A stretch of 64,000 nucleotides of DNA from Dictyostelium discoideum (taxonomy: Eukaryota): assembly GCA_000004695.1 (NCBI GenBank), contig CM000155.2, positions 512,001-576,000 of the forward strand, written 5' to 3'. Below are positions 11,707-23,520 of this stretch, in pieces. The position numbers were made by a program, and so were the translations under genes. The stretch's first letter is position 1. Each line of letters starts with the position of its first letter. The notes under the pieces were generated by a model that searched no databases, was not told where the DNA came from, and was given only the letters and a program-made list of their open reading frames with translations.

Positions 11707-12125
11707 TTATTTTTTGTTTTTATGATTGTTCATTATTTTACATTTTGTATTTTTTTTTAAATTTGGTATTTCATTGAATTCTGAAATTGGAATAATATAA
11801 ATTGATTCAAGTGTTGTATTTTGATCGAGCATTGATACAATTGATTTGGTAATTAAATTAATATTCTTTGTTTCAGATTCATAATAACAAATAGTAAAAT
11901 CAAGTGTTAAATTTTTAATTGTTTTATTATTTGCAAGTGAGTTCATAAAATCGTTTAAAAAGTTTTCATTGAATAAACTATTTTCATCCCATCCACATTC
12001 ACCACCACAATCATGAGTAATTGATAAATTTGTAATTGTTGAATTTGTTGATAATAGTTATAAACATTTTTTCCATAGAGACATTGAATATGGTGGTATT
12101 TCTACACATGCAATTATCATGATCC
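11707..12125 (-). pseudogene. C-terminal fragment of an F-box-like/LRR family member, with an in-frame stop and a frameshift
   Basis: Encodes ...LSTNSTITNLSITHDCGGECGWDENSLFNENFLNDFMNSLANNKTIKNLTLDF...LDQNTTLESIYIIPISEFNEIPNLKKNTKCKI. It matches the C-terminal third of the family genes. A TAA falls inside SLWKKCL*LLSTNS. The N-terminal two thirds are absent. Confidence 0.6.
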
Positions 12126-12417
12126 CTAAATGAAAAATAGATTTGGTAATCTTCATTTTTTCAAAAAAAAAAAAAAAAAAAAAAAAAATTTAAAATAAAA
12201 CATTTGTGTTGTAGGGAATTTTCAATAAAATTTCACCATTGTTGTAGGGAATTTAAAAAAAAAAAAAATCAAATTTAAAAAAAAAAAACCCAAAAATCTC
12301 TCTGTTTTTTAATTTTATTTTTTTTATTTTATTTTATTTAATTTATAAAAATGAAATGGAATTTGAATACTATTTTTTTATTTTTTTTTTTTTATTTTTA
12401 TGATTATTCTTTATTTA

Positions 12418-13464
12418 TTATGTAAATATTTTACATTTTGTATTTTTTGTTAAATTTGATATTTCTTTGAATTCTGAAGTTGGAAAAATAACAATTGATT
12501 CAAGTGTTGTATTTTGATCGAGCATTGATGTAATTGATTTTTTTAAATTTATAATGTCTGTTTCAGCATCATAATAACTAAGAGTAAAATCAAGTGTTAA
12601 ATTTTTAATTGTTTTATTATTTGCAAGTGAATTCATAAAATCATTTAAAAAGTTTTCATTGAATAAACTATTTTTATCCCATCCACATTCACCACCACAA
12701 TTATGAGTAATTGATAAATTTGTAATTGTTGAATTTGTTGATAATAGTTTTAAACATTGATTCCATAGAGACATTGAATATGGTGGTATTTCAATACATG
12801 AATTATCTTGATCACTAAATGAACAATAGATTTGGTCATCTTCATTAATACCATCACCAATAGTATCACCTTGGAAATTAATAAAATTTCTAAAATTAAA
12901 ATTATCCATTTTATTAAAATCAAATTCTGTTTTATCACCACCAAATTTACTATTATCATAGATTGAAGATATAAAATGAAATTGAAGGTCGAATTCGAGT
13001 GTATGTAAATTTGGTGATTGTAAAAATCTATAAAGTGCATATAATGGTATGAAGTCACCAAGGATTTCTACACTTTCATAGTTTTGATTTAATTTTGAAA
13101 TTGAGTGATATTGTCGAAGATGTGATTCTCCTGCATCAGAGGAACTAAAGGGTGTTATTTTTAAATATTTTGGATTTAATTCTTTAATCATTTCATACAC
13201 GAATCCATAGGATGTACCTTCTTCATAATCATATTCAACTTCAAATAGATTTGTTTTAAATTTGAATTCTTCTCTTTCAATATGTTCTAATATTTTGGGT
13301 TGATATGGTTTAAAGCAAGCCAAATCCAATTCAAAATTAATTATTATATCTTTATTATTTAATTTGTTTAAATATGTTAAAACCCATACTGAATTTTTGA
13401 ACGAATATTCATTGTCATATGAACATCTAACATTAACAGTTTCTAATGATTTTAAACTATTCAT
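12418..13464 (-). CDS. F-box-like/LRR (RNI-type) tandem family member, N-terminally truncated (348 aa ORF). Family-homologous sequence continues upstream to ~13740 through an (ATT)n poly-N tract but is broken by stops. It may be a pseudogene or a truncated gene.
   Basis: Family motifs MNSLKSLETVNVRCSYD, LNKLNNKD, NPKYLKI, HSISKLNQNYESVEI, PPYSMSLWNQCLKLLSTNSTI, FLNDFMNSLANNKTIKNLTLDF, LDQNTTLESI, NLTKNTKCKI. The upstream frame contains TAA codons before any ATG. Confidence 0.5.
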   Translation of the reverse strand: MNSLKSLETVNVRCSYDNEYSFKNSVWVLTYLNKLNNKDIIINFELDLACFKPYQPKILEHIEREEFKFKTNLFEVEYDYEEGTSYGFVYEMIKELNPKYLKITPFSSSDAGESHLRQYHSISKLNQNYESVEILGDFIPLYALYRFLQSPNLHTLEFDLQFHFISSIYDNSKFGGDKTEFDFNKMDNFNFRNFINFQGDTIGDGINEDDQIYCSFSDQDNSCIEIPPYSMSLWNQCLKLLSTNSTITNLSITHNCGGECGWDKNSLFNENFLNDFMNSLANNKTIKNLTLDFTLSYYDAETDIINLKKSITSMLDQNTTLESIVIFPTSEFKEISNLTKNTKCKIFT

Positions 13465-13964
13465 ATAATTAATTGATTTGTTATTTATTTTAAAGTAATC
13501 AATTATTATTGTTTTAATTAAATCATTAGGAACTAATTTAAATTTGCTATTATTATTATTATTATTATTATTATTATTATTATTATTATTATTATTATTA
13601 TTATTATTATTATTATTATTATTATTATTATTATTATTATTATTATTATTATTATTATCTAAATAAACATGTGGAATATAATGATTGAAAAGTATTTGAG
13701 AATTTTTAAACCAATTCCAATTGACAAAAGAATACTTTTTTATTTTATTTTTTATAAAGCCATCTGTTTTTAATTCTTCATATAATAAATATATTCAAAA
13801 AAAAAAAAAAAAAAAATAATTATTTTGTGATATTTTTGCTGAATAAATGTATTCCAAAAAAAAAAAAACCAAAATATCTTTTCAAAAAAAAAATATCCAC
13901 CAGGTTTATTATTCCAAAAAAAAAAAAATAAAAAAAAAATAAAAATAAAAAAAAATAAAAAATT

Positions 13965-21328: not shown

Positions 21329-21874
21329 ATGGAAAAAGAGAAATTTGAATACTCAAGAGAGGGTGAAAAGAGTAGTTTAACAATTGATACAGGTAAATTA
21401 GTTCAGGAATTTAATTCTTTGCCATATGAAGATATTCAAGGTAAAAAGAAAATTATAGAAAAGTTATTTGGTTCAGTTGGTGACGATGTATCAATAGAAC
21501 ACAATTTTCATTGTGATTTAGGATTCAATATTCATGTTGGTAATAGATTCTATGCAGGTTATAATTTTACAGTATTGGATGTAGCAGAGGTTAGAATTGG
21601 TGATAATTGTTTAATTGCACCAAATGTTGGCATTTATACAGCAGGCCACTATATATCACCACCAGAGGAAAGGCATAAAACAGGTTATGGTATACCTATA
21701 ACAATTGGTAACAATGTTTGGATAGGTGGTCATTCTGTAATATTACCAGGTGTAACCATTGGCGATAACTCTATCATTGCCGCTGGTTCTGTCGTTAATA
21801 AAGATGTTCCAAAAAATACAATCGTTGCTGGGAATCCAGCTAGAAAAATAAAAGATATAACTTCAAAACTTTAA
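21329..21874 (+). CDS. Hexapeptide-repeat O-acetyltransferase of the maltose/galactoside O-acetyltransferase (Maa/LacA) type, 181 aa
   Basis: Left-handed beta-helix hexapeptide repeats (IGDNCLIAPNVGIYTAGH, IGNNVWIGGHSVILPGVTIGDNSIIAAGSVV) and the motif HYISPPEERHKTGYGIPITIG typical of Maa/LacA. Complete single-exon ORF. Confidence 0.8.
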   Translation: MEKEKFEYSREGEKSSLTIDTGKLVQEFNSLPYEDIQGKKKIIEKLFGSVGDDVSIEHNFHCDLGFNIHVGNRFYAGYNFTVLDVAEVRIGDNCLIAPNVGIYTAGHYISPPEERHKTGYGIPITIGNNVWIGGHSVILPGVTIGDNSIIAAGSVVNKDVPKNTIVAGNPARKIKDITSKL

Positions 21875-21896
21875 TAACGTATAATTTTATTTTATT

Positions 21897-23520
21897 TTAT
21901 TTTTTTATTTTATTTTGTTTTGTTGTGATTATTTTACATTTTTTATTTTTTGTTAAATTAGATATTTCTTTGGATTTTAAACTTTTTCTAAAATTTTTAC
22001 TATAATTAATAACAATTGATTCTAGTGTTGTGTTTTTGTCGAGCATTGATGCAATTGATTTATAAATTAAATTTATTTTGTTTTTTTCTTCATATTCACT
22101 TAGACGCACTTGAAAATTAAAATCAAGTGTTAAACTGTTAATTGTTTTATTATTTGCAAGCGAATTCATTAAATCATTTAAAAAGTTTTCATTTAATAAA
22201 CTATTTTCATCTAAATCATAGTTGTCAAAACCACAACGGGAAAATGAACCACAATTATGAGTAATTGATAAATTTGTAATTGTTGAATTTGTTGATAATA
22301 ATTTTAAACATTGATTCTAGAGACTTTGAATATGGTGGTATTTCTTTTGAAAAACATGAAATTTCACTACGACTATATGAGCAATAGATTTGATTATCTT
22401 CATTTATACCATTATCAATATAAAATTTAATATCATCATGAACTTCAAATATTTTTCCTTTATTATCATTTCCAAAATCAATAAATTTAAAATTATCCAT
22501 TTTATTAAAATCTAATTCTGTTTTGTCTTTATCACCACTATCTTTACTACTATCATCTCTATTACTATTACTATTACGATCACTATAATAATTATTATTA
22601 TTTTTAATTTGATTATGATCATAGATTGAAGATAAAAAATGAAATTGAAGATTGAAATTGAGTGTATGTAAATTTGGTGATTGTAAAAATCTGTAAAGTG
22701 CATATAATGGTATGAAGTCGTCAATGATTTCTACACTTTCATAGTTTTGATTTAATTTTGAAATTGAGTGATATTGTTGAAGATGTGATTCTCCTGAATC
22801 TGAAACACATCGAAGGGGTTTGATTTTTAAATATTTTGGGTTTAATTCTTTAATCATTTCATAAACGAATCCATAGGTTGTATTATATTCAATATCATAT
22901 GAAACTTTAAATTCATTTGTTTTAAATTTGAATTCTTCTTTTTCAATATGTTCTAAATTTGTTGGTTCATAGGGATCACAGCAACCCAAATATAAATTAA
23001 AATTAATTAATAAATCTTTATTATTTAATTTATTTTAATATGTTAAAACCCATATTGAATTTGTGAATGAATATTCATAGTAATGTAAACATCTAATATT
23101 AACAGTTTCTAATGATTTTAAACTATTCATATAATTAATTGATTTATTATTTATTTCAAAGTAATAAACTATTATTGTTTTAACTAAATCATTATGAATC
23201 AATTTAAATTTGTTATTATTACTATTATTATAATTATTATTATTATTGATTTTGTAAAGAATATTTGTTATATTTAAAATTTGAATAGTTTTTATTATTA
23301 TTATTATCAAAATAAATACGTGGAATAAAATTACTGAAAAGTTTTTGAGAATTTTAAACCAATTCGAATCCACAAGGGAATAATTTATTATTTTGTTTTT
23401 AAATTCTTTTAAAATTTCAAAACTGTCCATTTTATCATATTCTTCATATAATAACCATTATTATCATTATTTACTGATAGATTTGCTTTGAGTTTTTTAT
23501 TTGTAGTTTCGTCTTCCATT
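21897..23520 (-). pseudogene. F-box-like/LRR family member disrupted by several frameshifts. The ORF fragments are 21897..22169, 22255..22989 and 23035..23430, with the start MEDETTNKKLK at ~23518.
   Basis: Co-linear with the intact members but the frame is broken at least three times. A further N-terminal fragment lies at ~21060..21140. Confidence 0.6.

Follow-up and report, generated by a model that had tools for sequence, protein, structure and literature searches.

What does a tandem array of hypothetical-protein genes in the social amoeba Dictyostelium discoideum encode, and how does it change? The array lies at 11707..23520 of a 64,000-nucleotide stretch of contig CM000155.2 (assembly GCA_000004695.1, positions 512,001 to 576,000, forward strand), referred to here as the window; positions given without an accession are window positions. 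An initial annotation, made from the sequence alone, had read the array as a family that combines an F-box-like N-terminus with leucine-rich repeats (LRRs) of the ribonuclease-inhibitor (RI) type and evolves by birth and death. We find that the family proteins are LRR solenoids, that their N-terminal motif is probably a divergent F-box, and that the array is a birth-and-death multigene family. It most likely encodes Dictyostelid-specific substrate receptors of SCF-type (Skp1-cullin-F-box) ubiquitin ligases, a reading which we hold with somewhat more confidence than doubt.

The copies were located by tblastn of the two intact proteins, A and B, against the whole window, and DNA repeats by comparison of the window with itself. 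The array holds nine minus-strand pieces of the family, i.e., the two intact genes, an N-terminally truncated copy (C), a broken full-length copy (D) and five fragments. The initial annotation had counted nine or more same-strand copies plus one inverted piece at 1..330; the same-strand pieces stand, whereas the outlying sequence proves to be two pieces within 1..380, only one of which is inverted. Both predicted intact genes were recovered as open reading frames (ORFs) and by tblastn, and three-frame translation bore out the two damaged copies. Copy C lacks its first ~36 codons, corresponding to helix 1 of the F-box-like region, and a search for an upstream spliced exon that could restore this end was negative, with no N-terminal coding sequence between C and the next block. 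Copy D is disrupted by three or more frameshifts, the loss of the LPLIIQKQIL segment and one in-frame stop. Introns were rejected as the source of the D frameshifts: the shifts lie inside conserved coding segments, the stop falls in a conserved motif (WVLTY*NKLNNKD), and the intact relatives have no introns.

The family is confined to a narrow set of organisms. A homologue search returned 21 proteins, all of them Dictyostelid and all "hypothetical", and an exhaustive profile search of 1.84 billion cluster representatives (50% identity) found just 35 family representatives. They come from the D. discoideum complex, D. citrinum, D. dimigraforme, Polysphondylium violaceum and Tieghemostelium lacteum. 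Automatic annotation in UniProt labels two P. violaceum members, and only these, as "F-box domain-containing". Literature searches on DDB_G0291642 (copy C) and on Dictyostelium F-box/LRR arrays returned nothing on the family within the library covered.

The LRR fold is secure, as judged from structure models, Foldseek and matches of the family profile to RI-type LRR proteins. AlphaFold models built from family alignments (predicted template-modelling scores, pTM, of 0.65 and 0.72) show ~11 strand–helix units over residues 150-540, many at a predicted local distance difference test (pLDDT) value of 85-97, and Foldseek places COI1 at ranks 1 and 2 together with other LRR neighbours. The repeats are irregular, with 22-44 residues from strand to strand, and the solenoid is interrupted by a 55-residue variable loop (aa 351-405). 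A 26-member family profile searched against PDB sequences matched LRRC34 with E=1.8e-4, followed by GALA, NOD2, DRC5, CARMIL, tropomodulin and NLRP1, and all 14 of the listed matches at E<=10 are LRR proteins. The segments that align to RI-type LRRs (in LRRC34, NOD2 and others) are those which the initial annotation had quoted (FLNDFMNSLANNKTIKxLTL, LDQNTTLESI). Shallower searches were less productive: phmmer and hmmsearch against PDB sequences, using B alone or an 18-member profile, gave nothing relevant, as the low-complexity matches to SAP30 and NDC1 (poly-Asn) are artefacts and a terpene-synthase match is spurious. No match to FNIP/IP22 repeats (PF05725) appeared in any Pfam scan of family members.

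The N-terminus presents a more difficult case. All members share the pattern LPxx[IL]xxxI[IL]xx[LI], a variable insert of 12-50 residues, and [YF]xLV[CN][KW]xW[FY], and divergent members come near the canonical F-box, e.g., LP..KILDYIYY...YALVCKQWFQI. Comparison by hhalign of the family N-terminus with an F-box reference profile gave P=7.8e-5 and a probability of 61%, with an alignment that is colinear over 43 columns and contains a 13-residue insertion, placing LP on LP, helix 1 on helix 1 and LVNWxWF on VCKRW. Column-shuffled controls reached a maximum score of 15.3 in 300, compared with the observed 23.2, which none of the 300 attained. The probability rises to 76% for the divergent members alone. 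The better AlphaFold model (model 2) has helices at residues 28-43, 51-61 and 65-78 with pLDDT 55-70. The F-box-like N-terminus proposed initially is supported in part, by a family-level profile–profile match and a moderate-confidence three-helix model and not by standard profiles (see below), and we regard the motif as a probable divergent F-box on the strength of sequence and model.

Evidence that the array evolves by birth and death comes from within and between strains. The block at 13938..14364 is duplicated at 17637..18057 with 90% identity over 434 nt, close to the limits first proposed (13965..14350 and 17660..18130), and the mid-gene fragment at 18571..18726 shows 88-90% DNA identity to 13354..13506, 19898..20050 and 23020..23172. 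A partial second copy of the neighbouring acetyltransferase gene was also recognised, since 21324..21413 matches 23740..23833 (85%) and 21543..21875 matches 23839..24152 (90%). It stands in the same colinear order to the 5′ end of D as the intact copy does to that of B, showing that the duplicated unit comprises a family gene and a divergently oriented acetyltransferase gene, as had been predicted. The broader claim that neighbouring genes co-duplicate with the family holds for the acetyltransferase but fails for the carboxyl methyltransferase gene within the array. Four further copies or fragments of the latter lie 42-47 kb away (58936..59470, 59493..60632, 61483..62601 and 63186..64000; 83-94% identical), and no family debris was found beside them (58.9-64 kb), indicating that this gene duplicated independently of the family.

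Between strains, assembly GCA_054859355.1 carries eight consecutive family genes at the locus and more 120 kb away, as against four long copies here, so that the copy-number differences suggested as a check are indeed seen. Family copies remain syntenic, with the same acetyltransferase adjoining, in at least five species or strains. A neighbour-joining tree (without bootstrap) contains lineages common to strains, in which C groups with W7, B with W1/W4, and D with copies that are annotated as genes elsewhere, including cfdiscY_9876 (P0004, 529 aa, full-length) and ACTFIW_326 (P0006, a C-terminally truncated 470-aa model). The same tree further shows copies duplicated in, or missing from, single strains, and in D. 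dimigraforme a clade specific to that species. Shared lineages with strain-specific gain and loss, together with intact, truncated and dead copies, identify the array as a birth-and-death multigene family, on which some gene conversion appears to be superimposed. As a separate observation, a 938-aa gene of piggyBac type (DDE_Tnp_1_7) adjoins the eight-gene array in GCA_054859355.1 (JBTAPG010000039.1, L001 1..1872, minus strand); no equivalent was seen beside the array in the window.

The rate of change was estimated as dN/dS (omega), the ratio of non-synonymous to synonymous rates, by the Nei–Gojobori method (NG86) with poly-Asn masked, using A, B, C and six intact copies of another D. discoideum strain. 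Pairwise values range from 0.8 to 1.5, and the pooled omega is 0.93 (bootstrap confidence interval, CI, 0.77-1.14). The neighbouring, 95%-identical pair of polyketide synthase (PKS) genes analysed with the same code gave 0.33-0.42, showing that the method alone does not yield values near 1. By region, the N-terminus is at 0.29-0.55 (0.55 for the first 80 residues) and an invariant-rich core (286-345) at 0.47, whereas the C-terminal LRR half reaches 1.37 (CI 0.95-2.03; P(omega<=1)=0.04), so that the evidence for diversifying selection from these sequence comparisons is marginal. In the dN/dS comparison across the LRRs that had been proposed, the C-terminal half is raised, and the beta-strand positions are not enriched. 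When neutral evolution is simulated for this base composition and the synonymous divergence seen here, an ORF of 520-560 codons acquires 9-10 stops and stays intact with P<1/2000, indels aside, which shows that A, B and the at least eight intact, intronless ORFs of the other strain have been kept open by selection. Identity comparisons agree with the rapid evolution initially claimed: the acetyltransferase is 97.8% identical between two strains and ~95% identical to its D. dimigraforme and D. citrinum counterparts, while the family proteins reach 83% (best pair) between strains and ~53% against D. dimigraforme and D. citrinum.

Copy C is the most constrained member. Against its counterpart in strain ACTFIW (GCA_054859355.1, L001 17100..18695), omega is 0.24 (p=4.5e-6), with 25 non-synonymous and 23 synonymous differences where 81% would be expected to be non-synonymous. 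Its N-terminus was lost differently in the two strains, by a deletion in AX4 and by a frameshift in the other. Purifying selection together with strain-distinct N-terminal lesions suggests that an LRR protein lacking the F-box half has been retained, and copy C may act as a decoy or regulator.

In the substrate-receptor reading, the divergent F-box, with its insertion of 12-50 residues between helix 1 and helices 2-3, would dock on Skp1, and the LRR solenoid would bind the substrate for ubiquitination. As to the locus, copies on the same strand undergo unequal crossing-over, which duplicates a family gene with its divergently oriented acetyltransferase gene and leaves C-terminal or internal fragments behind, and replication slippage alters the (AAT)n tracts. 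Some copies have died (D), some have lost the F-box half (C), and copy number and content vary by strain. Fast change in ORFs that are kept by selection is the pattern expected of receptors that track changing targets.

A number of observations weigh against this reading, and most of them concern the two domain assignments. The Pfam F-box and F-box-like models (PF00646, PF12937) give no match at E<=1 in 18 members or at E<=5 in 26, and in none of the 34 members scanned do they fall below the E=0.05 threshold. The Pfam LRR models likewise do not reach E=0.05 in any of the 34 members, the best single-sequence scores being E=0.08 for LRR_R13L1-DRL21 and E=0.38 for LRR_8 (one member each, among 26 members). 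Pfam thus finds neither an F-box nor LRRs, an outcome that, taken literally, the initial annotation had named as refuting its reading; LRR proteins are matched with a deeper profile, i.e., the 26-member profile against PDB sequences. The N-terminal family profile found no F-box protein among PDB sequences. The F-box reference used in hhalign is a hand-assembled set of 14 sequences, although it was validated on the PDB, where 57 chains matched at E<=0.01, nearly all of them named F-box and many outside the seed. The D. discoideum-type N-termini alone give an hhalign probability of only 0.3%, and the N-terminus has moderate confidence in AlphaFold, with pLDDT <50 in model 1. Matches to LRR structures have low TM-scores (0.2-0.34), a common outcome for solenoids that differ in curvature, and many of the top structural neighbours are LRR proteins without an F-box (RanGAP, NLRs, axonemal LRRs). 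As for the rates, NG86 is a coarse method where the genome is 80% A+T; the co-variation of dN and dS along the gene points to a mosaic past involving gene conversion, which would violate the model; and the omega near 1 could partly reflect relaxed constraint. Non-synonymous change is also not focused on the LRR beta-strands (omega 0.95 in strands, 0.89 in helices and 1.09 in loops).

The main competitor, which we consider possible but rather unlikely, is that the proteins serve as LRR scaffolds or sensors and have no working F-box, the N-terminal helices being a family-specific cap or localisation module. Such proteins would act via partners and not via SCF, like RanGAP, ribonuclease inhibitor, tropomodulin and the LRR domains of NLRs. 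Against it stands the F-box profile–profile match, which lies far over its empirical null and is colinear in both halves of the motif, and the LP...VCKxW signature is far more canonical in divergent members. A motif placed immediately ahead of the LRRs matches the FBXL layout, few parts of the gene are as constrained as the N-terminus, and UniProt places its F-box label on two members. An altogether improbable reading is that the array is a decaying remnant in which all copies are neutral and the intact ORFs young or lucky. Most pairwise dN/dS values are indistinguishable from 1, fragments are many, one copy is clearly a pseudogene, and A and B lack an exact match in the protein collection, all of which would fit decay. 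However, the simulated accumulation of stops, the survival of at least eight intact intronless ORFs in another strain, the low omega of the N-terminus and core, and the retention of invariant residues out to P. violaceum and T. lacteum speak against it, and another assembly lists B as a gene encoding the identical protein. Purely neutral decay of A, B and C is rejected on the grounds of ORF survival and the constrained segments.

The initial annotation had also raised the case of a known transposon-encoded ORF. The many copies and fragments, and the piggyBac-like gene that adjoins the array in GCA_054859355.1 only, could be taken to mean that a mobile element carries the family, as its cargo or as its own ORF, and spread it by transposition, which we think very improbable. 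No transposase, integrase or reverse transcriptase domain occurs in the window ORFs near the array, and the inverted repeats are A/T-run noise only. The copies lie on the same strand at one syntenic locus, beside the same acetyltransferase, across species and strains; the duplicated blocks take in host neighbour genes, as unequal crossing-over predicts; and the protein is an LRR solenoid. A transposon-encoded ORF was rejected, given the lack of such domains and of terminal repeats and the tandem, syntenic copies. A further possibility, to which we give little credence, extends the receptor reading into a polymorphic recognition or conflict locus, in which the proteins sent for degradation by strain-specific F-box/LRR receptors would belong to other genotypes, to bacterial symbionts or pathogens or to selfish elements, and the F-box-less copy C would be a decoy or dominant-negative regulator. 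The self/non-self role raised in the initial annotation is likewise purely speculative. Such a locus would be the Dictyostelid counterpart of S-locus F-box or zeel-1-type incompatibility systems, and it would link the array to the F-box gene fbxA/chtA, which has a known cheater phenotype.

By architecture and fold, the family goes with the FBXL-type receptors of SCF ligases (Skp2, FBXL2, FBXL3, FBXL17; plant TIR1, COI1, MAX2). In contrast to these, the family is missed by the Pfam F-box and LRR models, its F-box-like motif is split by the 12-50-residue insertion, a long poly-Asn linker precedes the LRRs, and its repeats vary from 22 to 44 residues and carry large loops. No FBXL protein is more than 7-10% identical to it, and Skp1 binding by the family is putative. 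Among LRR proteins of the RI and CC types (RNase inhibitor, RanGAP1, LRRC34, NLR and Ralstonia GALA; PMC2244805), the family fits neither the 28/29-residue RI nor the 26-residue CC consensus cleanly, its repeats being irregular in length and spacing, and the variable loop interrupts its solenoid; we assign it to no strict LRR subclass.

With regard to evolution, the nearest parallels are the F-box superfamilies of plants and nematodes, whose expansions have a proposed role in recognising foreign proteins. Like them, the family shows tandem arrays, birth-and-death evolution, many pseudogenes, strain copy-number differences, and a conserved F-box end joined to a fast-evolving target-binding end. 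The plant FBX superfamily has been described in terms of "genomic drift" (PMC3030570), and Caenorhabditis has lineage-specific families of ubiquitin-ligase adaptors (PMC12951971). The Dictyostelid family is tiny by comparison (35 representatives at 50% identity), is limited to Dictyostelids and shows only marginal evidence of positive selection, and its substrate domain is an LRR, whereas in plants and worms the fastest-evolving families have mostly FBA, Kelch, FTH or DUF domains. A family of LRR-type E3 ubiquitin ligase receptors with a VHL/BC-box is similarly tandemly expanded and strain-polymorphic. Its adaptor motif is the VHL/BC-box, not an F-box, and one of its members is part of a toxin-antidote incompatibility element; evidence of an incompatibility phenotype exists for that family alone.

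The array is thus a lineage-specific case of a known evolutionary pattern and not a new mechanism or kind of system; most likely it is an F-box/LRR array of a familiar kind, hitherto undescribed in social amoebae. A family of "hypothetical proteins" that is invisible to Pfam gains a fold, the LRR solenoid, and a probable role as SCF substrate receptors, which helps annotation and makes functional study of the array reasonable. In common with plants and nematodes, Dictyostelids would then have a small array of ubiquitin-ligase adaptors that turns over fast and varies among strains. Loci of this sort suggest themselves as candidates for host–microbe or social-conflict interfaces that are genetically testable in a model organism, and copy C, F-box-less yet constrained, is an easy knockout target.

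Gene models at the locus in other strains are of mixed quality. In GCA_054883475.1, B appears as a gene whose protein is identical to the one here. A 1,042-aa model in that assembly (L002 369..4609, minus strand, equivalent to window about 11700..15950) fuses C and A and is probably an annotation artefact. In another D. discoideum strain, ACTFIR_003542 (P0021) joins an unrelated protein of ~420 aa to an N-terminal fragment of the family (…EFKTDDFIKDYKFKNEIINYFLVNWNWFKYSQ…); this fusion is either a mis-annotation or a chimeric gene. In the window itself, the ORF at 12418..13464 is identical to the AX4 protein DDB_G0291642 (XP_635297), and this match, together with that of the acetyltransferase to XP_635301, marks the window as chromosomal DNA of the AX4 type.

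Poly-Asn tracts of differing length had been reported for all copies. Tandem Repeats Finder (TRF) detects them in the four long copies, with 37 (ATT)n units in C, 33 and 24 in A, 42 in B and ~12 in D, and the fragments have none. The tract of copy C comprises 48 units in GCA_054883475.1 (L002 2204..2347), which is locally 99.4-99.8% identical, and the tracts of A and B are of the same length in both. The change from 37 to 48 units in a near-identical strain demonstrates that these tracts are unstable.

Table 1. Positions of the family pieces, their subregions and adjoining genes in the window
Feature	Positions	Strand	Evidence and remarks
Gene A, intact, 519 aa	14360..15919	-	ORF; tblastn span 14378..15919
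Gene A, F-box-like motif	about 15704..15853	-	
Gene A, (ATT)n tracts	14935..15005; 15597..15696	-	TRF
Gene B, intact, 558 aa	18842..20518	-	tblastn span 18845..20518
Gene B, F-box-like three-helix region, aa 24-80	20279..20449	-	
Gene B, poly-Asn linker	20095..20221	-	
Gene B, ~11 irregular LRRs, aa 149-540	18899..20074	-	
Copy C (DDB_G0291642), annotated ORF 12418..13464 (348 aa)	12418..13788	-	Frame open up to 13788; tblastn 12427..13788
Copy C, (ATT)37	13548..13658	-	TRF
Pseudogene D, full-length but broken	21897..23520	-	tblastn 21924..23519, in three frames
Pseudogene D, (ATT)~12 tract	23213..23247	-	TRF
C-terminal fragment, about aa 396-541, tail duplicate of copy C	11713..12129	-	tblastn; 11662..12157 vs 12368..12846 = 87%
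C-terminal fragment	14204..14361	-	tblastn; inside duplicated block 13938..14364
C-terminal fragment	17903..18077	-	tblastn; in duplicated block 17637..18057
Mid-gene fragment, aa 157-208 of B	18571..18726	-	tblastn, 71% identity
Tiny N-terminal fragment, aa 53-83	21076..21144	-	tblastn, ~70% identity, E=4e-4
Mid fragment, about aa 235-297 of B, cut by window edge	1..177	-	tblastn 65% identity, E=4e-18
Inverted C-terminal fragment and 3′ flank	189..380	+	tblastn 192..314 frame +3, 73% identity
Acetyltransferase DDB_G0291538, hexapeptide-repeat	21329..21874	+	Identical to XP_635301, on 3.6-Mb record; Pfam Hexapep E=5e-16, Mac cap
Decayed second acetyltransferase copy	23740..24152	+	Colinear with 5′ end of D, as the intact one with B
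S-adenosylmethionine (SAM)-dependent carboxyl methyltransferase (Methyltransf_7), inside array	16351..17497	+	

At the edge of the window, the two outlying family pieces are joined head-to-head; the minus-strand piece is 85% identical in DNA to 22759..22958, and the plus-strand piece is 85% identical to 12555..12371 in reverse orientation. This inversion junction at 1..380 implies further family sequence beyond the upstream edge of the window. The GC content is ~20% across the whole window, and poly-Asn and poly-Gln stretches abound in its ORFs. The ORF at 9975..11393 (plus strand, 472 aa), immediately upstream of the array, is without a Pfam family and consists mainly of low-complexity sequence rich in poly-Asn, poly-Gln, Ser and Thr. 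A polyketide synthase of 2,351 aa neighbours the array, and two very large polyketide synthase genes form a tandem pair here (24394..32131 and 33874..41580, both on the minus strand) that is 95% identical across 7.7 kb.

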